Origin: Methanomicrobia archaeon
GTDB lineage: Archaea; Halobacteriota; Bog-38; Methanoflorentales; Methanoflorentaceae
DNA: 64,000 bases
Reading direction: 5' to 3'
Assembly (NCBI GenBank): GCA_015661395.1
Contig: JACWML010000001.1
Span: 19,273-83,272, forward strand
Shown here: positions 9,824 through 40,417 of the stretch, piece by piece
Layout: the number at the start of each line of letters is the position of its first letter
Position numbering within the stretch: position 1 is the stretch's first letter
The notes under the pieces: model-generated
The model's input: only the letters and a program-made list of their open reading frames with translations
Databases searched by the model: none
Told to the model about the DNA's origin: nothing
Position numbers and translations under genes: made by a program

Positions 9824-10114
9824 ATGGACGTTGACGAACAGGCCAATAAGATTAAGAGTTGGGCCAGAAAGCATGCCGAGAGACGAGGAATTCAGCTCAA
9901 TCCTGACGAAGAGCGAGTCGATGAGGTCGCAAAGGGTCTCGCTGCCAGGCAGGAAAAGTTCGGAAAGCGTTACTGCCCGTGTCGCATTATTACGGGAGAC
10001 GCCGATGAGGATCGAAAGATAATCTGTCCGTGCGTTTACCACGAAGAAGAGCTCAAAGAGCACGGCATGTGTCATTGCAAGCTTTTTGTTACAAAAGAAC
10101 GTGCGTTGGGATGA
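9824..10114 (+). CDS. Ferredoxin:thioredoxin reductase catalytic-subunit-like protein (FTR/FDR family)
   Basis: 96 aa with the CPC-x16-CPC-x8-CHC cysteine pattern (RYCPCRII...IICPCVYH...GMCHCKLF). Its stop overlaps the next ATG (ATGA). Confidence 0.8.
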   Translation: MDVDEQANKIKSWARKHAERRGIQLNPDEERVDEVAKGLAARQEKFGKRYCPCRIITGDADEDRKIICPCVYHEEELKEHGMCHCKLFVTKERALG

Positions 10115-10526
10115 GCGGTTGCGCGAGCATCTCATCAGGCGGCTACGAGTTTAAAAGCGGAATAACGCCCCCTACAGTGGTTGGCAACTTGATGCAGAAC
10201 AAAACGGTCATCCTGTTCATCACGCAGAACAACTGCCCTGATTGCGAGCAGGCACGACCACTGATAGCGAGTCTTCAATCGCAGTACAATGGCACGAACG
10301 TAACATTTGTTAACTTCAACATCGACAACAACACTACGTCACAGAATGTCGCCAAAGCCTATGGCGTGACCGCAACCCCGACAACCGTTGTGTTACGCAA
10401 GGACGGGTCCGCCGCGATCTTCGTGGGTGTCTTCGACCCGAGCACGGTGAAAAGCGCCATTGACGACGCACGCAGCACTTACTAAGGACGCGCGCACATG
10501 GAAGTAAACCCACTGATCGCTTTCGG
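9914..10526 (+). repeat. Segmental duplication, copy A (3' part of FTR-like gene, thioredoxin, first ~30 nt of ccdA)
   Basis: Collinear with 11299..11927 by manual alignment. A 155-nt block, 9946-10100, differs from the other copy by a single base. Confidence 0.85.
10111..10485 (+). CDS. Thioredoxin-fold protein, CPDC active site
   Basis: 124 aa. Has VILFITQNNCPDCEQARP and a cis-Pro-type TPTTVVLRKDG. Translationally coupled to the FTR-like gene. Confidence 0.8.
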   Translation: MSGCASISSGGYEFKSGITPPTVVGNLMQNKTVILFITQNNCPDCEQARPLIASLQSQYNGTNVTFVNFNIDNNTTSQNVAKAYGVTATPTTVVLRKDGSAAIFVGVFDPSTVKSAIDDARSTY

Positions 10527-11160
10527 AGCAGGCCTGATTAGCATTTTTTCTCCCTGCGTGTTACCCTTGCTACCGGCCATCGTCGCCTCATCAACGGATC
10601 GCGGCAGATACCGGCCTCTCGCCATCGTCCTGGGCCTAAGCATATCCTTTACGAGCATGGGACTCGTCGCATCGGCTTTTGGCGCCGTTTTTACGGCGTA
10701 TAGTTATTATCTCTTCGCAGCGGCGATATTCTTCATTATCGCAATGGGATTCTGGATGCTCTTCGATCTCCACCTACCCTACAGTGCGCCGCGGCTAGGT
10801 CTCATCGATCGGGTCTCAAAGAAAACGTATGACATTCCGACCGAAGGCATTGCGAGCGGGCTGCTGTTGGGACTTGCACTCGGCATTGTGTGGCTTCCGT
10901 GCACGGGACCGGTGCTCGGCACGATACTCACGTGGGTCGCCGCGAAGGGCGACGTCATGACGGGCGGCCTGCTGCTCATCGTTTACTCGCTCGGCTTCGC
11001 CGTTCCCATGCTGGCGATCGCGTATTCGACAAAGATGTCGTCATCACTTGTCGGCAAATCGTCCAAGACTATCTGGATTAAGCGCGTCGCGGGCTTAATG
11101 CTCATCGTGGTAGGCGTTTATCTGGTTTGGCCGTACCTCGCAACGCTTACTCAGTTTTAA
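10498..11160 (+). CDS. ccdA: CcdA/DsbD-family transmembrane thiol:disulfide electron transporter
   Basis: 220 aa, about 6 TM segments, with SPCVLPLLP and LPCTGPVLG motifs. Confidence 0.85.
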   Translation: MEVNPLIAFGAGLISIFSPCVLPLLPAIVASSTDRGRYRPLAIVLGLSISFTSMGLVASAFGAVFTAYSYYLFAAAIFFIIAMGFWMLFDLHLPYSAPRLGLIDRVSKKTYDIPTEGIASGLLLGLALGIVWLPCTGPVLGTILTWVAAKGDVMTGGLLLIVYSLGFAVPMLAIAYSTKMSSSLVGKSSKTIWIKRVAGLMLIVVGVYLVWPYLATLTQF

Positions 11161-11191
11161 AACGTCTTTTTGTGAACGAGGCCACAGCAGT

Positions 11192-11310
11192 ATGCATTGG
11201 ATTGTGCAAAAGAAAGAGATAGCGCCTTCCACGTTCGCGTTAAGATAGATGCACCGCTAGTCGCCAAAAAAGCAAGAGCGGGTCAATTTGTGGTCGTACG
11301 AGTCGATGAG
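11192..11310 (+). pseudogene. 5' remnant of a PyrK-like NfnA/SudB-type subunit gene
   Basis: ATG 11192 gives MHWIVQKKEIAPSTF. After a 1-nt frame change the sequence reads RVKIDAPLVAKKARAGQFVVVRVDE, the typical N-terminus of the FAD/NAD-binding small subunit. Homology stops there. Confidence 0.6.
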
Positions 11311-11505
11311 GTAGCCAAAGGTCTTGCCCTCAGGCAGGAAAAGTTCGGAAAGCGTTACTGCCAGTGTCGCATTATTACGGGAGACGCCGATGAGGATCGA
11401 AAGATAATCTGTCCGTGCGTTTACCACGAAGAAGAGCTCAAAGAGCACGGCATGTGTCATTGCAAGCTTTTTGTTACAAAAGAACTATGCTTGCTGAGCG
11501 TCGCG
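11311..11505 (+). pseudogene. Partial duplicate of the FTR-like gene (C-terminal ~60 codons), fused in frame to flanking sequence
   Basis: Encodes VAKGLALRQEKFGKRYCQCRIITGDADEDRKIICPCVYHEEELKEHGMCHCKLFVTKE. It lacks its own N-terminus, and the first CPC has become CQC. Confidence 0.7.
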
Positions 11506-11886
11506 ATGAGCGGGTGCCTCAACATCAATCAGTCGGGTTACGAGTTTAAAAGCGGGATAACACCACCAGCAGTGGTTAGCAACTTGATGCAGAACAGAAC
11601 GGTCGTCCTGTTCATCACGCACAACAACTGTCCTGATTGCGAGCAGGCACGACCGCTGATAGCGAATCTTCAATCGCAGTACAGTGGCATGAACGTGACG
11701 TTTGTGAACGTTAACATCAGCGCCAACAGGACGTCCCAGGACGTCGCCAAAGCGTATGGCGTGACGGCGACCACGACCCCGACAACCATTGTTTTACGCA
11801 AGGACGGATCTGCGGCGACCTTCGTGGGTGTCTTCGACCCGAACATCGTGAAAAGCGCCATTGACGACGCGCGCAGCTCGTACTAA
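11506..11886 (+). CDS. Thioredoxin-fold protein, CPDC active site (diverged paralog)
   Basis: An internal ATG gives a 126-aa product. About four fifths of residues match the 10111..10485 product by manual alignment, with a 2-residue insertion. The active site is intact. Confidence 0.65.
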   Translation: MSGCLNINQSGYEFKSGITPPAVVSNLMQNRTVVLFITHNNCPDCEQARPLIANLQSQYSGMNVTFVNVNISANRTSQDVAKAYGVTATTTPTTIVLRKDGSAATFVGVFDPNIVKSAIDDARSSY

Positions 11887-11927
11887 GGACGTGCGCACAT
11901 GGAAGTAAACCCACTGATCGCTTTCGG

Positions 11928-12254
11928 CGCGGGGCCTATCCCAAGATCTTCTGCGGCAGAGACAGAACGCCGCACTTCTCGATTGATACGGCCTGCGCCG
12001 TGCTGCGCCCGAAATTCGATGGCTGGTCTTTGATTCCAGAAGGCTGCCGCGTGATAATCGATGCCTTCGCGCCGGAAGGCGATGTCCTCGCGCCTAGCGT
12101 GACCGCAGCCGATTCGTTAATCCGCGACGCAGACGAGGTTCTCGTTTCCGGTCCCGGGGCGATGACTACGAGAAGAGCTGCAATGCCCGGGGGCGAGATG
12201 ATGCGATCTGCGCACGGAGTGGCCGTCCTGGTGCGTAAGGTAAAAAGACTATAG
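11928..12254 (+). pseudogene. Orphan PUA-domain fragment (C-terminal piece of an ArcS/TgtA-like gene)
   Basis: The frame is open from 11910. It encodes ...RVIIDAFAPEGDVLAPSVTAADSLIRDADEVLVSGPGAMTTRRAAMPGGEMMRSAHGVAVLVRKV, matching the PUA consensus pattern. No catalytic domain lies upstream. Confidence 0.5.
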
Positions 12255-12341: not shown

Positions 12342-13514
12342 ATGAACACCCAAACCGTTGCACAGAAAACAAAGGGTATCGTGATCGCCGTTGTAAAGGA
12401 ACAGGCCCCGCATGAGCAGCGCGTTGCGACCGTGCCCGAGGTGGTCCAGAAACTCACGAAGTCGGGGTACGAGGTCCGGGTCGAGCATGATGCGGGAGCG
12501 GGAGCTTTCTACCCAGACGACCTCTATGTTGCCGCCGGTGCGAAGATCGCGCCCGGTCGGGCCGAACTGCTAGACGGTGCAACAATCGTGTTGTGCGTAC
12601 AGCCCCCAGCCATAGCCGATGTCGAGATGCTCGCAGCGAGCACGATCGTCATAGGGTTCATGAACGCGGCAAACAACCTTTCAACCGTTGCACGGATGCG
12701 TGACCGCAAGGTCACCGCCTTTGCCCTCGAGCTTGTCCCGCGGATCACCCGCGCCCAGAGCATGGACGCACTCAGTTCCCAGGCAACGGCCGGCGGGTAC
12801 GCAGCAGCGATTCTCGGCGCATACAACTGCCCCAAGTTCCTCCCGATGCTGACAACGGCTGCGGGCACGATCCGGCCGGCAACGGTGCTGATCCTTGGCG
12901 CGGGCGTTGCCGGCCTCACGGCGATCGCCACAGCCAAGCGCCTTGGCGCCATGGTCGAGGCATACGATGTCCGGCGTGCCGCAGGCGAACAGGTCCGGAG
13001 CCTCGGCGCGAAATTCCTCGAGCTTGAGATCAATGCGGAAAGCGAGGGAGGCTATGCCCGAGAGCTCACGCCGGAAGAGAAGGTGAAGGAACAGCAGATG
13101 GTCTCTGCCGCGGTGGCGCGGGCTGACATCGTTATCACGACTGCCAGCATCCCCGGCCGGAGGGCGCCGATCCTGATAACGAAAGAGACCCTCGCAACGA
13201 TGCATCCGGGCGCCGTCATCGTCGACCTTGCTGCTGAATCAGGCGGCAACTGCGAGCTGACACAATGTGGAAAGACGGTAAAGGAGCACGATGTCACTAT
13301 CGTGGGCCCGCAGAACCTCCCGGCCCGGGTCGCGTTTCACGCAAGCCAGATGTACGCAAGGAACCTCCAGTCGTTCCTCTCGCTCCTTGTTAATGAGGAC
13401 GGGGCGTTCACCCGTGAGTTCACTGACGAGATTCTGGCAGCAAGCCTCCTGGTGAACGCAGGCGAAGTGCGGCATCAACCAACGCTTGACCTCATCAGCG
13501 GAGGGAGGCTGTGA
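12342..13514 (+). CDS. pntAA: NAD(P) transhydrogenase subunit alpha part 1
   Basis: 390 aa, alanine-dehydrogenase/PNT fold with VLILGAGVAGLTAIATAKRLGA. GGGGGAG lies 5 nt upstream of the ATG. Confidence 0.9.
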   Translation: MNTQTVAQKTKGIVIAVVKEQAPHEQRVATVPEVVQKLTKSGYEVRVEHDAGAGAFYPDDLYVAAGAKIAPGRAELLDGATIVLCVQPPAIADVEMLAASTIVIGFMNAANNLSTVARMRDRKVTAFALELVPRITRAQSMDALSSQATAGGYAAAILGAYNCPKFLPMLTTAAGTIRPATVLILGAGVAGLTAIATAKRLGAMVEAYDVRRAAGEQVRSLGAKFLELEINAESEGGYARELTPEEKVKEQQMVSAAVARADIVITTASIPGRRAPILITKETLATMHPGAVIVDLAAESGGNCELTQCGKTVKEHDVTIVGPQNLPARVAFHASQMYARNLQSFLSLLVNEDGAFTREFTDEILAASLLVNAGEVRHQPTLDLISGGRL

Positions 13515-13822
13515 CCGAGATCACTGCGTTCTGGATCGCTATCTACATCGCAATGCTGGCGGCATTCACCGGCTACGTTGTCATTAGCCGTATCCCCGCC
13601 ATCCTACACACACCTCTGATGAGCGGCTCGAACTTTATCCACGGGATCGTGCTCGTTGGGGCGATGGTAGCGCTCGGCCTTGCCAATACGCCTACAGAGC
13701 AGGTGATCGGGTTCATGGCAGTTGTTCTCGGGGCAGCGAACGTGACTGGCGGTTATGTAGTCACGGAACGGATCCTCCAGATGTTCGACCGTAGCGGAAA
13801 GAAGCCCGGCAAGGGGGCGTGA
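13511..13822 (+). CDS. pntAB: NAD(P) transhydrogenase subunit alpha part 2 (membrane)
   Basis: 103 aa, three or more TM helices, 4-nt overlap with pntAA. Confidence 0.85.
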   Translation: MTEITAFWIAIYIAMLAAFTGYVVISRIPAILHTPLMSGSNFIHGIVLVGAMVALGLANTPTEQVIGFMAVVLGAANVTGGYVVTERILQMFDRSGKKPGKGA

Positions 13823-13823
13823 C

Positions 13824-15206
13824 GTGGCTGACTTCTCCTTTGCCATCGAACCCGTATACATTGCGACGATCTTCTTCTTCATCGTCGGGCTGCAGCGGAT
13901 GAGCAACCCGCTCACGGCTCGGAGCGGGATCGTTTGGGCCGGCGCCGCGATGCTGATCGCAACGCTCGTCACGTTCTTTACCCCAAATCTCACCAACATC
14001 GGCCTGATCGCGATCGCGATCGTGATCGGTGGCGGCTTCGGCTATATATCGGCCAAGCGCGTGGCGATGACCAACATGCCCCAGATGGTTGCATTCTTCA
14101 ACGGGATGGGGGGAGGCGCGGCAGCCGGGATCTCGGCAGTCGTGCTCCTTGGCCCGACCACTCCCACCAGCTCGCTTGCGGTCGTTGGCGGCTTGATCGG
14201 GGCTGTCTCGTTTTCAGGCAGCCTCATCGCGTTCCTGAAGCTGCAGGGCTGGATGCCATCGCGGCCGGTTACCTTCACGGGCCAGCAGATCGTCAACATG
14301 GCAGTCCTGGTCCTCGCCATCGTTTCCGGTGTGTTCGTCATCCTTCAGCCGTCATCGAGGCTGCTTTCCGTAAACGCGTCTCTCCCGCTCTTCTTTATTC
14401 TCGCTCTCGGCTTCGGGCTCCTCATGACGCTCCCGATTGGCGGGGCCGACATGCCTGTAGTGATCTCGATGTACAACGCCTTCACCGGCCTGGCCGTTGC
14501 GCTTGACGGGTTCTCGTTTGTCACCCCCAACTATGCGATGATCATAGCGGGCGTCATTGTCGGCGCTGCGGGTTCGCTGCTCACGCTCAAGATGGCTAAG
14601 GCAATGAACCGCTCGCTCACAAACGTCTTCTTCGGAGCCTTCGGCGCAACGGAGGAGCAGGCGGCGCATGTATCGGGCAGCGTGAAAGCGATCGAGGCTG
14701 ACGACGTTGCAGTCATGCTCGCCTACGCGGACCGGGTTATCATCGTCCCCGGCTACGGCATGGCAGTCGCTCAAGCCCAACAGAAAGTGAAGGAGCTGAC
14801 CGACGTGCTCGAGCGTAGGGGCGTGCGGGTGAAGTTCGCGATCCACCCGGTTGCCGGACGTATGCCTGGGCACATGAACGTCCTGCTTGCCGAGGCAGGG
14901 GTTGCCTACGACCACCTCTTCGACCGCGATGAGGTGAACCCTGAGTTCCCCAGCACTGACATCGTCCTTGTCATCGGGGCCAACGATGTCGTAAACCCGG
15001 CGGCACACCGGAAGGGCAGCCCGCTTTTCGGCATGCCAATCCTCGATGTCGAACAGGCAAAGAACGTGATCGTCCTAAAGCGCGGGCAGGGAAGGGGCTT
15101 TGCGGGGATCGAGAACGACCTGTTCTACCGGGACAACACGCGGATGCTCTACGGCGACGCGCAGGAAACGGTCGGCAAGCTTGTGCAGGCCCTCAAGAAA
15201 CTCTGA
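13824..15206 (+). CDS. pntB: NAD(P) transhydrogenase subunit beta
   Basis: 460 aa. Polytopic N-terminal half and a C-terminal NADP(H) domain (IIVPGYGMAVAQAQ...HPVAGRMPGHMNVLLAEA). GTG start 1 nt after the pntAB stop. Confidence 0.9.
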   Translation: MADFSFAIEPVYIATIFFFIVGLQRMSNPLTARSGIVWAGAAMLIATLVTFFTPNLTNIGLIAIAIVIGGGFGYISAKRVAMTNMPQMVAFFNGMGGGAAAGISAVVLLGPTTPTSSLAVVGGLIGAVSFSGSLIAFLKLQGWMPSRPVTFTGQQIVNMAVLVLAIVSGVFVILQPSSRLLSVNASLPLFFILALGFGLLMTLPIGGADMPVVISMYNAFTGLAVALDGFSFVTPNYAMIIAGVIVGAAGSLLTLKMAKAMNRSLTNVFFGAFGATEEQAAHVSGSVKAIEADDVAVMLAYADRVIIVPGYGMAVAQAQQKVKELTDVLERRGVRVKFAIHPVAGRMPGHMNVLLAEAGVAYDHLFDRDEVNPEFPSTDIVLVIGANDVVNPAAHRKGSPLFGMPILDVEQAKNVIVLKRGQGRGFAGIENDLFYRDNTRMLYGDAQETVGKLVQALKKL

Positions 15207-39337: not shown

Positions 39338-40417
39338 GTGTTGATTGAAGGGCAAGACAATCAGAAGCTCAGCCGAGTCGGTGCGCGGATAAAGTCTCGC
39401 GTAGATCAAGCGAGCGATGCTGCTGACGAAGAGAGAGTGAGTTCTTCTCAGTTCATTCCCGGACTATTCTACCCCACGGACCACAGCGGCTATGCGCAAG
39501 CATTTGCGCTCAAGCGAGCTTTAATCGAGAAGCACGACGGAAAAGCGCTCGAAGAGGTGACTCCTGGAACCGAACTCGTCACTGAGCGCGGGACGTGTTA
39601 CCGCGTAGAGACGGAAGAGGGGGTAAGCATACGTACGATACCTCCAAAGAGAGCCAAAGAGAGCCTATTAACAGATTTTAAGCTCCTCCACGGCGTTAGA
39701 GAGACGACCGAGCGCGCATTGAAGGAACGCGGATACCGCAGCATCGCCGATCTCGTCGAGCACGACCGCTTTGGCACCCAGGCGCTCCGCTTCTTAAAGC
39801 TTGTCGAAATGCGCGACTCGGGTGAATTAATCGAATGGGTTGGAAGAAGGTTTACGAGATCCGACCCGCTCGCACTGAACGCCTCAGGCTTTCACACGCC
39901 AGACCAGTTGCTTTTTGTGGATCTCGAGACCCTGGGACTCTTCACGAGCCCAATTATAGTCATAGGAGTTGCTGAGGCGATCGACGAGACCCTGACCGTT
40001 CGCCAGTATGTTGCAAGGAACGTGGGCGAAGAACCGGCGGCACTGGAAGCGCTGCTTTCGCACGTTGACGCAAGCACTGCTCTTGTAACGTTCAACGGGA
40101 GGGCTTTTGACGTTCCTTTCCTTGAGCAACGCCTCGCTTACTACCGGATCCACGGCAATCTGCAGAGAGCTCACTTCGACGTACTCCAGTTCGCGCGACG
40201 AAGGTGGCGAGGGCTGACTCCTGACTTCAAGCTGGCCTCGTTGGAAAAACACGTAATGGGCGCTCGTCAATCAGATATTCCTAGCGCGTTAGTACCGGAA
40301 TTCTATGAGACGTACCTGCGCACACAGAACGCCGGACCGTTAGTCGCGATTATCGACCATAATAGACAGGATCTAGTCGCGCTAGCGCACATTTTCTCCA
40401 AGGTTTGTGAGGGGTAA
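39338..40417 (+). CDS. RNase H-fold 3'-5' exonuclease-like protein (YprB/MrfB, COG3359-like)
   Basis: 359 aa. The C-terminal half has LLFVDLETLGL...LVTFNGRAFDVPFLEQRL...HFDVL...DHNRQDL, which are DEDD-like exonuclease motifs. Confidence 0.7.
   Translation: MLIEGQDNQKLSRVGARIKSRVDQASDAADEERVSSSQFIPGLFYPTDHSGYAQAFALKRALIEKHDGKALEEVTPGTELVTERGTCYRVETEEGVSIRTIPPKRAKESLLTDFKLLHGVRETTERALKERGYRSIADLVEHDRFGTQALRFLKLVEMRDSGELIEWVGRRFTRSDPLALNASGFHTPDQLLFVDLETLGLFTSPIIVIGVAEAIDETLTVRQYVARNVGEEPAALEALLSHVDASTALVTFNGRAFDVPFLEQRLAYYRIHGNLQRAHFDVLQFARRRWRGLTPDFKLASLEKHVMGARQSDIPSALVPEFYETYLRTQNAGPLVAIIDHNRQDLVALAHIFSKVCEG

Follow-up and report, generated by a model that had tools for sequence, protein, structure and literature searches.

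A partial copy of an FTR-thioredoxin-CcdA gene cluster in a peat methanogen: probable microhomology-mediated copying, gene decay and recent gene conversion

Introduction

For the catalytic subunit family of FTR, three cysteine pairs (CPC, CPC and CHC) coordinate the 4Fe-4S cluster and provide the active disulfide. In plant FTR these pairs are spaced as CPC-X16-CPC-X8-CHC. Furthermore, pathways of the CcdA/DsbD type with extracytoplasmic thioredoxin-like partners are known, such as CcdA-ResA and CcdA-HCF164.

Here, a stretch of 64,000 nucleotides (the window) was analyzed. It stems from a peat methanogen that belongs to the Bog-38 type group and is listed in public records as a 'Halobacteriota archaeon' MAG. 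An original prediction, made from the letters of the window alone, had proposed a partial tandem duplication of an FTR-thioredoxin module in this stretch.

The FTR-like/Thioredoxin/CcdA Cluster

A cluster of UPF0147, an FTR-like reductase, a lipoprotein-type thioredoxin and CcdA is kept across the family. The window contains it as follows:

9824..10114, forward strand: FTR-like gene, copy A (Pfam PF02943, 90.4 bits, cut-off 22)
10111..10485, forward strand: thioredoxin A with a CPDC active site (Pfam thioredoxin families), 5'-truncated in the window
10498..11160, forward strand: ccdA, a membrane thiol-disulfide transporter of the DsbD_TM family (PF02683, 77.6 bits, cut-off 27.1)

Like the FTR catalytic-subunit-like proteins of methanogens and anaerobes, copy A fits PF02943 over almost its full length, and it shares the CPC, CPC and CHC pairs of the known family. 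Its pattern is CPC-X14-CPC-X12-CHC, which is common to 86 of 87 homologues and differs from the plant spacing. The solved relatives used for comparison were PDB 4tpu and 7pwe as well as the plant/cyanobacterial FTR 1dj7 and 2pu9; 7pwe and 4tpu match copy A with E = 1e-20 and 1e-19, respectively. The protein comprises 96 amino acids in the window vs. 93 (ending in TKEQ and a stop codon) in public contigs. In contrast to known FTR-like systems, this 93-amino-acid protein stands alone, with no rubredoxin or other extension, and its gene adjoins a secreted thioredoxin and CcdA instead of a cytoplasmic thioredoxin.

The ccdA gene is the sole complete copy, and the identical protein is indexed in 74 collection blocks. 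C20 (SPCVLP) and C135 (LPCTGP) do not vary across 4 species. As in the CcdA/DsbD pathways, a DsbD_TM membrane protein with two conserved cysteines lies beside a CxxC thioredoxin with a putative signal peptide. In contrast, the cytoplasmic partner next to ccdA is an FTR-like iron-sulfur enzyme instead of an NADPH-linked thioredoxin system. None of the loci examined showed cytochrome c maturation genes next to the cluster.

Drawn from the known roles of these families, an electron path from the FTR-like enzyme via CcdA to the thioredoxin can be inferred. Here, reducing power would come from the cytoplasmic iron-sulfur enzyme, cross the membrane via CcdA and be used outside by the membrane-anchored thioredoxin. 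The cluster thereby hints at a ferredoxin-driven extracellular disulfide reduction in abundant peat methanogens. Such a route lay outside the claims of the original prediction, and a literature search on FTR and CcdA in methanogens gave no usable match.

Two Collinear Copies with Mosaic Identity

The two copies share the following elements:

9914..9927, forward strand: junction 14-mer CGAGTCGATGAGGT, source side, FTR codons R V D E V
9946..10100, forward strand: tract in copy A, the likely donor of a gene conversion (1 difference in 155 to copy B)
11299..11485, forward strand: FTR piece of copy B, residues 31-92 (PF02943, 61.2 bits, cut-off 22; profile positions 28-89)
11486..11886, forward strand: thioredoxin B, a beta-type allele with CPDC and two inserted codons (full form 148 amino acids, VKSRVSIRYITLIAALCLLSVAMSGC...)

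That the 3' part of the FTR-like gene, the thioredoxin gene and the start of ccdA occur as collinear partial copies was confirmed by local alignment and by a repeat search. In the alignment, 9914-10535 and 11299-11937 are collinear over 640 columns with 82 differences, and the repeat search recovered this match as three blocks of 96%, 86%, and 90% identity. Both copies open with CGAGTCGATGAGGT, as had been noticed. Directly after this 14-mer, 7 of 18 nucleotides differ (39%; 11313-11330 in copy B). Positions 9946-10100 and 11331-11485 then have one sole difference, C at 9978 and A at 11363, which turns CCG (Pro) into CAG (Gln) and the first CPC into CQC; the alignment bears out the predicted single-base change. 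The flanks of this tract diverge by 13-32%. The thioredoxins share 79% protein identity (about 80% had been predicted) and copy B carries the expected 6-nt insertion, in addition to 10 nt after 11485 that are found in this window only.

With a substitution rate of 0.133 outside the tract, one difference or none in 155 nt would be expected with P = 6e-9. Within the 52 codons of the tract there are 0 synonymous differences at 28.7 synonymous sites, vs. a pS of 0.36 in the thioredoxin. The mosaic pattern of identity, claimed from the outset, is thus not due to chance.

The possibility that the second copy is an assembly artefact, raised with the original prediction, is ruled out: copy B is identical in six independent loci from JGI, NCBI, and ENA, and the intact thioredoxin B is present on about 40 contigs.

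Insertion of Copy B into a Relic-Filled Spacer

Copy B is surrounded by remnants of other genes:

11192..11312, forward strand: 5' relic of an nfnA-type gene, frameshifted (three-frame translation; MHWIVQKKEIAPSTFALR and a stop codon, then ...VKIDAPLVAKKARAGQFVVVRVDE in another frame)
11899..11927, forward strand: start (~29 nt) of a second ccdA, where copy B ends on the right and meets the ancestral spacer at a microhomology of 1-2 nt
11928..12254, forward strand: C-terminal PUA relic of arcS, archaeosine synthase alpha (PF01472; NCBIfam NF040592 positions 469-575, E = 4e-24)

The nfnA relic is homologous to intact NfnA-type ORFs that follow ccdA in the related loci L027, L028, and L031, of which that in L027 belongs to NCBIfam PRK06222. 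The arcS relic is older than copy B, and L007, L011, L016, L017, and L022 contain it as well. A second full nfnA or PUA gene was not found elsewhere within the window. After ccdA lies an oligo-T run (11165-11172), which might end transcription before thioredoxin B.

Only one copy is found in each of some 20 related Bog-38 type species (19 related loci). The closest species (L007, L008, and L011) display the empty site, consisting of ccdA, the nfnA stub, a 24-nt spacer, the arcS relic and pntA. In the window, a copy of ~630 nt, bounded exactly by CGAGTCGATGAG and GCGCGGGGCC, stands in place of these 24 nt. The left junction is a microhomology of 12 nt, CGAGTCGATGAG, common to FTR and the nfnA relic, and RVDE is encoded in both. 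This identity in both parents, together with the empty sites, supports the view that the duplication was joined at a microhomology, and the mere ~29 nt still present of the second ccdA agree with the proposed truncation of the second copy.

After the split from the nearest sampled relatives, a stretch of ~630 nt, running from FTR codon 31 through the thioredoxin gene to nucleotide ~29 of ccdA, would thus have been copied into the spacer that follows ccdA and is filled with relics, using the 12-nt CGAGTCGATGAG on the left and 1-2 nt on the right. The route may have been a tandem duplication followed by a deletion of ~830 nt or a single repair event with templated insertion. A full tandem intermediate, containing a second complete ccdA and a second stub, was not found among the six strain loci, and the one-step insertion would fit as well as duplication and deletion. 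Judged by these comparisons, copy B is species-specific and a case of ordinary genome evolution.

Three parts make up the FTR piece of copy B, namely the junction 14-mer (11299-11312), 18 hyper-divergent nucleotides (11313-11330), and the converted tract (11331-11485), in which CQC occupies 11362-11364. Compared with the FTR family, it is devoid of residues 1-30. Of 87 homologues, 85 have the first CPC unchanged, and the two with CQC are both copy B. Its only in-frame starts are TTG at 11197 and GTG at 11290, with the frameshifted nfnA relic upstream. Since the N-terminus and a usable start are absent, the piece is classified from its sequence as a pseudogene or relic; a functional FTR would have a complete domain, the CPC motif and a translatable gene.

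Recent Gene Conversion from Copy A to Copy B

Two explanations were considered for the near-identity of the 155 nt. For a nucleotide-level element kept by selection, such as an RNA structure, a binding site or a regulatory sequence, only the identity of the tract itself speaks. However, the same 155 nt differ by 6-11% in close species and by 28% in deeper relatives (19 orthologues); the copy A tract is 6-10% away from its orthologues, like the rest of FTR-A. The single difference between the copies is non-synonymous and lies in an invariant motif. Furthermore, no Rfam match was obtained in the tract at E <= 1, and its folding energy is no different from that of shuffled controls (z = -0.08), by which an RNA element or structure is ruled out. 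Taken together, a selected element is extremely improbable.

A recent gene conversion from A to B, deduced from these divergence patterns, explains the tract, and of the two possibilities left by the original prediction, conversion is favored over constraint by the missing synonymous changes, the cross-species divergence of 6-28% and the negative Rfam and folding results. The direction follows from the comparison with L007: the tract differs from it by 6%, as FTR-A does elsewhere, while all B-specific FTR sequence is 19-34% away from every species. The conversion would have overwritten no less than 155-164 nt of FTR piece B, ending on the right where the two copies have alpha and beta sequences that cannot be aligned. 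CQC would then have arisen by a subsequent C-to-A substitution in copy B, which is free of constraint.

Thioredoxin B, Allele Types and the Origin of Copy B

The thioredoxin of public contigs and of 11 related species carries a conserved putative signal peptide that ends in a lipobox-like ...MSGC, the lipobox being read by eye. The full thioredoxin A is a lipoprotein-type precursor of 146 amino acids (MNLKSSKRYVAVVAVLCLLCVGMSGC..., sequence from L002). Both thioredoxins score above the cut-offs of PF00085, PF13905, and PF13098 and both contain CPDC. On about 40 public contigs, the intact thioredoxin B ORF (148 codons) begins with GTG, is preceded by a separate ribosome-binding site and encodes a putative signal peptide of the lipoprotein type. 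Against the beta-type orthologues (L007, L011, L015, and L020) its dN/dS is 0.19-0.33. Five synonymous and 10 non-synonymous changes are specific to B (ratio 0.6), vs. 4 and 2 for A (0.15).

Thioredoxin B therefore looks functional in the other assemblies, and its function can be inferred from the intact ORF with its own signals and a dN/dS of 0.2-0.3. Together with CQC occurring only in copy B, this agrees with the earlier proposal of a possibly functional thioredoxin beside an FTR relic. Having kept ribosome-binding site, start codon and signal peptide, it would persist as a second, faster-evolving extracytoplasmic thioredoxin on the single shared CcdA.

The signal peptide of copy A is alpha-type and protein-identical to L014 and L018, while copy B is beta-type. 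The alpha and beta segments diverge by 32% at the nucleotide level, with the active sites CPAC and CPDC. The thioredoxin divergence between A and B partly reflects two old allele types and not drift after duplication alone; the predicted value of about 80% stands, but part of it belongs to the alpha/beta difference. As a less likely reading, the segment of ribosome-binding site, signal peptide and N-terminus could represent two old allele classes, shuffled among closely related peat methanogen species by recombination or under balancing selection, both captured here via the partial duplication. This would imply two extracytoplasmic thioredoxins of different targeting or specificity, fed by one ferredoxin-linked FTR-CcdA route.

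With 0.49, the dS of thioredoxin A vs. B lies above the dS between this species and its empty-site relatives (0.11-0.26); therefore, a simple duplication after the split with clock-like drift misfits. Due to this excess, an in-place duplication needs an extra step, in which copy A later gained the alpha-type 5' segment, or B was imported. Also against an in-place history, the 18 nt by the junction contain seven B-specific changes, five of them synonymous, where 1-2 are expected under neutrality.

In the case of an import, copy B would stem from a related lineage as a piece of its beta-type FTR-Trx-CcdA operon, which entered through illegitimate recombination and was then converted in part by A. 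The beta type of B beside the alpha-type signal peptide of A, a dS above the species background, and the 39% divergence of 11313-11330, mostly at third codon positions and thus fitting divergence while functional, are in line with this. Exchange between lineages is also common at this locus, as ccdA reaches a dS of 0.65-0.82 between species while the flanking genes are at 0.13. Nevertheless, the B-specific synonymous divergence of the mature thioredoxin (0.06) is not above that of A (0.047) or L007 (0.072), and B is 9-13% away from the beta alleles of sister species, as expected if beta was resident and A was later replaced. Moreover, both junctions would have to be illegitimate with no homologous anchor, and no donor of the 18-nt variant was found among 19 species. 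An import is hence considered rather unlikely.

For the in-place copying, the whole history, with FTR decay, retention of thioredoxin B and later A-to-B conversion, is regarded as fairly probable. Within it, the copying into the spacer, the use of the junctions and the conversion are demonstrated as far as sequence comparison reaches.

Two Deletions Specific to This Assembly

Comparison with public contigs revealed two segments absent from the window:

10100..10101, no strand: 73 nt absent from this assembly
11485..11486, no strand: 62 nt absent from this assembly

The 73-nt segment holds the FTR stop codon, a GAGGG ribosome-binding site, ATG and the first 18 signal-peptide codons of thioredoxin A. 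The 62-nt segment likewise holds a stop codon, a ribosome-binding site, the GTG start and the first ~15 signal-peptide codons of thioredoxin B. Both window thioredoxins are consequently devoid of a start codon and of n-region and h-region. The undeleted version carries AGTAGAGGGAGTCAGTTATGAATC... and [A/G]GTAGAGGGGGTCAGGTGTGAAATC..., while in the window ...AAAGAAC is joined to GTGCGTTGGG and ...AAAGAAC to TATGCTTGCT, respectively.

The loss of 62 nt at 11485..11486 creates the in-frame fusion ORF of 229 amino acids. This ORF (11197..11886) and the 10-nt longer linker, both described in the original prediction, are present in the window, but are products of deletions unique to this assembly. 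The predicted FTR-B chimera would be marked by the junction peptide VRVDEVAKGLALR. Intact 146-amino-acid thioredoxin A was found on 48 contigs vs. one with the junction-spanning ORF of 173 amino acids; intact 148-amino-acid thioredoxin B on 23 + 16 + 1 contigs vs. one NCBI contig (126,057 bp) with a fusion product of 198 amino acids. Exact look-ups of the window-type ORFs gave no match, in which GTG- and TTG-start ORFs may have been missed, as the first codon is then not read as Met; for one ORF the negative disagrees with the protein cluster table, so that the two indexes differ. Scans of genome and metagenome contigs for the window-type junctions were negative as well, but say nothing about their occurrence, as even the known public-type junction is absent from the metagenome set and the genome set contains only a relative with 95% CcdA identity. 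Over ~62 kb, the window differs from JBEKKA010000001.1 by one SNP apart from the deletions.

If both deletions were real, a single concerted event in one strain would have removed the translation start and signal peptide from thioredoxins A and B alike, resulting in a cytoplasmic thioredoxin A coupled to FTR and a fusion of the FTR piece with thioredoxin B. Both occur on one deposited NCBI contig, which rules out an edited or unique window, and the private SNP at 39879 marks the window as an independent data set. Moreover, the left ends of the two deletions fall on one homologous position, as could result from a homology-dependent process such as the removal of a loop in an A/B heteroduplex. 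However, the intact forms are found on 36-48 contigs vs. 1 deleted, and with one SNP in ~62 kb it would be extraordinary for two indels to have arisen independently at paralogous sites. The shared left end is the first A/B difference in 5 of 6 public strains, and thus a branch point of an assembly graph; the ends are without microhomology, and the signal peptide would be stripped from both CcdA partners. Real deletions are thus possible but doubtful.

The two deletions are probably assembly errors, and our preferred guess for their cause is an artefact at the branch point of the assembly graph. An origin from read cross-mapping or consensus is unsupported, since none of five aligner-like scoring schemes applied to copy A vs. 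copy B gave gaps of 73 or 62 nt. Caution is needed, as the FTR-thioredoxin ORF of 229 amino acids rests on two short deletions in one deposited MAG, which are absent from dozens of otherwise identical contigs.

Comparison with Known Processes

The locus represents a clean example of three known processes, namely microhomology-mediated partial duplication, gene decay and recent interlocus conversion. It shares the 12-nt junction microhomology and the empty site in sister taxa with microhomology-mediated duplication or templated insertion. As in ectopic (interlocus) conversion between tandem paralogues, a sharp tract of identity lies within older, diverged copies, and the recipient is a pseudogene. 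Compared with known interlocus conversion there is nothing unusual in kind; particular to this locus, 7 substitutions cluster within 18 nt beside the junction, and the right boundary of the tract lies at the alpha/beta allele heterology.

A second, partial FTR-thioredoxin run

The region contains the following features, where FTR stands for a protein resembling the catalytic subunit of ferredoxin:thioredoxin reductase.

9824-10114, FTR-like gene of the first run, copy A (PF02943, 90 bits)
10111-10485, thioredoxin A, CPDC
10498-11160, ccdA (PF02683)
11192-11312, frameshifted 5' stub of nfnA, all that is left of the nfn genes in the clade of the window
from 11299, second run after ccdA, copy B: FTR piece and thioredoxin, followed by the first ~29 nt of ccdA
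11928-12254, relic of archaeosine synthase alpha (ArcS), C-terminal ~107 residues with the PUA domain (NF040592, E = 4e-24), just upstream of pntA
from 12342, pntA, after the second run

A local alignment of the two copies (9914-10535 versus 11299-11937) gave 82 differences in 640 columns and a repeat search returned the same blocks, confirming the collinear segments of the original prediction. Both copies start with the common 14-mer CGAGTCGATGAGGT. The predicted early divergence follows in 11313-11330, where 7 copy-B-specific substitutions in 18 nt, 5 of them synonymous in the FTR frame, lie well above the neutral expectation of 1-2. This excess could stem from error-prone synthesis at the junction or be the leftover of a more divergent donor. 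Next comes a tract of 155 nt (9946-10100 versus 11331-11485) with a single base change (9978 C versus 11363 A), which turns CPC into CQC. The thioredoxins have diverged to 79% protein identity and differ by the predicted 6-nt insertion. Overall, the observation is confirmed, and its interpretation is supported with refinements.

Two stretches missing from this assembly

The CcdA protein of the window is indexed in 74 collection blocks, and copy B was found in all six public loci of the same genome type (L001-L006; from JGI, NCBI and ENA), which rules out the duplication as an assembly artefact. However, each of these loci is longer than the window by 73 nt at 10100|10101 and by 62 nt at 11485|11486. 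With the missing stretch, FTR lacks its stop codon (CAG TAG) in each copy, and the thioredoxin its ribosome-binding site (GAGGG), its start codon and most of a lipoprotein-type signal peptide (MNLKSSKRYVAVVAVLCLLCVGMSGC for A, VKSRVSIRYITLIAALCLLSVAMSGC for B). The 10-nt longer linker after 11485 and the 229-aa ORF (11197-11886) of the original prediction are therefore present in the window, but as consequences of these two assembly-specific deletions.

In the protein collection, the fusion product (198 aa) and an ORF of 173 aa on the minus strand across the first deletion junction occur once each, both on the same NCBI contig of 126,057 bp. An altered window sequence was rejected, since both junction-spanning products are present in the collection. 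The intact forms are far commoner, with thioredoxin A on 48 contigs, thioredoxin B on 23+16+1 and the 153-aa counterpart of the minus-strand ORF on 36.

Both deletions start at the first base separating A from B in 5 of the 6 public strains (A AGTAG, B GGTAG), a base that is a branch point in an assembly graph, and no microhomology was found at the deletion ends. An assembly error is for these reasons rather likely and a real double deletion the less probable explanation. Cross-alignment of copies A and B, one specific candidate for the artefact mechanism, did not reproduce the gaps. The deletions have a common start base but end 10 nt apart. The 229-aa fusion ORF is thus probably an assembly error.

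Apart from the two deletions, the NCBI contig JBEKKA010000001.1 differs from window positions 571-62653 by one SNP only. This SNP at 39879 (A in the window, G in the public loci L034, L036 and L037), the sole other difference from public contigs in ~62 kb, lies within a 359-aa ORF (39338-40417; RNase_H_2-like, PF13482). A collection entry from a related species (P0090, ENA contig of 2,238 bp) contains a 54-aa FTR product reading ...RVDEVA then SVTARVALLRETPMRIER, frame-shifted by an internal deletion just 3' of the RVDEV codons; this is one more indel at that hotspot, whether real or introduced by assembly.

Ancestral arrangement and origin of copy B

Annotation assigns the FTR homologues and the related loci to Halobacteriota or Methanomicrobia MAGs from bogs and fens, with the isolate names bog_38, fen_3 and SPRUCE, in addition to Microflora Danica genomes. 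In 19 related-genome loci, mostly of different species, the UPF0147 - FTR - thioredoxin - ccdA cluster is single-copy. In deeper relatives (L009, L026-L028, L031), ccdA is followed by NfnA-type and NfnB-type genes (L009 8664-10845, L027 6925-9102) and then lon, whereas the clade of the window has pntA-pntA'-pntB at that position (12342-15206). NfnA/NfnB are of the electron-bifurcating transhydrogenase type, while Pnt is a proton-translocating transhydrogenase; the change from nfn to pnt replaced one system in place by a functional analogue. The ccdA-pntA interval of this clade is left with relics, the nfnA stub and the ArcS fragment, the latter of which may have arrived together with the pnt genes. 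A more decayed ArcS relic is also present in L007, L011, L016, L017 and L022.

The empty site of the nearest species (L007, L008, L011) reads ...GTACG-TCGATGAG CGTATTGACGGAAAAAAGCAGCCT GCGCGGGGCCTAACCC..., and copy B takes the place of exactly its middle 24 nt. At the left junction, a 12-nt identity, CGAGTCGATGAG, encodes RVDE in FTR and in the NfnA relic alike, and at the right junction the overlap is 1-2 nt. The empty site and the left-junction identity confirm a species-specific event joined at a microhomology, in line with the proposed kind of junction. Mechanistically, the empty-site comparison would fit either a tandem duplication followed by a deletion of ~830 nt or a one-step templated insertion.

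Gene conversion of the FTR piece

Divergence between the copies is not uniform. At the substitution rate of 0.133 outside the tract, the probability of at most one difference in 155 nt is 6e-9, so the mosaic is highly significant. None of the 28.7 synonymous sites in the 52 tract codons differs, compared to a dS of 0.49 for the thioredoxins. Unusual constraint had been considered as an alternative to recent gene conversion. However, these 155 nt vary between species, by 6-11% among close ones and by 28% in deep relatives, arguing against constraint at the nucleotide level; an Rfam search of the tract returned no match and its fold energy is at the level of shuffled sequences (z = -0.08). These results support gene conversion.

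The distance of the tract to L007 (6%) equals that of FTR-A elsewhere, whereas the B-specific FTR sequence at 11313-11330 is far from every species. This identifies copy A as the probable donor, and these distances argue for conversion from A to B. In L002, the identity extends 9 nt more to 164 nt, ending where the copies turn 32% different. Of 87 homologues, 85 keep the CPC motif, and the only two with CQC are copy B, so that the Pro-to-Gln change arose in an unconstrained relic after the conversion, in line with the relic status suggested for the FTR piece.

Thioredoxin alleles and selection

Across species, the thioredoxin sequence from the ribosome-binding site into the first part of the mature protein, signal peptide included (L002 9531-9700; homologous parts of L007-L022), occurs in two types, 32% apart at the nucleotide level. 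Type alpha (L013, L014, L017, L018, and L019 by nucleotide distance) shows M[NK]LKSS...CVGMSGC [AST]SISS and the active site CPAC. Type beta (L007, L010, L011, L012, L015, L016, L020) shows VKS...SV[AST]MSGC (LN)INQ with CPDC (L007, L011, L015, L020), CPAC (L010, L016) or CPEC (L012). Thioredoxin A combines an alpha signal peptide, identical at 100% of protein positions to L014 and L018, with a mature part that has CPDC and is nearest to L007 and L011 (6-7% nt) in its second half, while thioredoxin B is beta throughout. Therefore, much of the divergence between A and B is allelic rather than post-duplication drift, which resolves the apparent paradox that their dS exceeds that between this species and its empty-site relatives (0.11-0.26).

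Within the mature thioredoxin, changes unique to B amount to 5/83 synonymous and 10/277 non-synonymous sites (ratio 0.6), compared to 4/84 and 2/276 for A (ratio 0.15). Pairwise dN/dS of B versus beta orthologues (L007, L011, L015, L020) is 0.19-0.33, and an intact 148-codon ORF with its own translation signals is present in about 40 contigs. Accordingly, thioredoxin B is most likely a functional paralogue, as had been suggested, with its constraint relaxed or shifted.

The dS of ccdA reaches 0.65-0.82 between species whose flanking genes (PntA, Lon) have a dS of ~0.13, which points to frequent inter-lineage exchange at the locus. The alpha/beta distribution is likewise patchy among species with such PntA and Lon values; together with the high ccdA dS, this is suggestive of inter-lineage recombination or a long-lived polymorphism at the locus.

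The FTR-thioredoxin-CcdA system

The closest solved relatives of the FTR-like protein are 7pwe and 4tpu. Judging from established family roles, this iron-sulfur protein would act as a cytoplasmic ferredoxin-dependent disulfide reductase, CcdA would pass reducing equivalents through the membrane and the lipid-anchored thioredoxin would work outside the cell. The duplication would then have provided a second external thioredoxin, with one CcdA common to both.

In sister species (L007 7270-7312, L010, L009), one extra A (AAAAGAAACAG vs AAAAGAACAG) lengthens FTR from 93 to 102-103 aa, with a 17-nt overlap with the thioredoxin start; the FTR C-terminus and its thioredoxin coupling therefore vary between species. 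Furthermore, the genomes of L023-L025, L029 and L030 hold 1-2 more thioredoxin-CcdA pairs (CcdA 70-73% identical), with no FTR-like gene detectable next to these extra pairs. These methanogens thus have several CcdA systems, of which the FTR-linked cluster is one. The phenomenon seen in copy B is itself an ordinary one of paralogue birth, decay and ectopic conversion.
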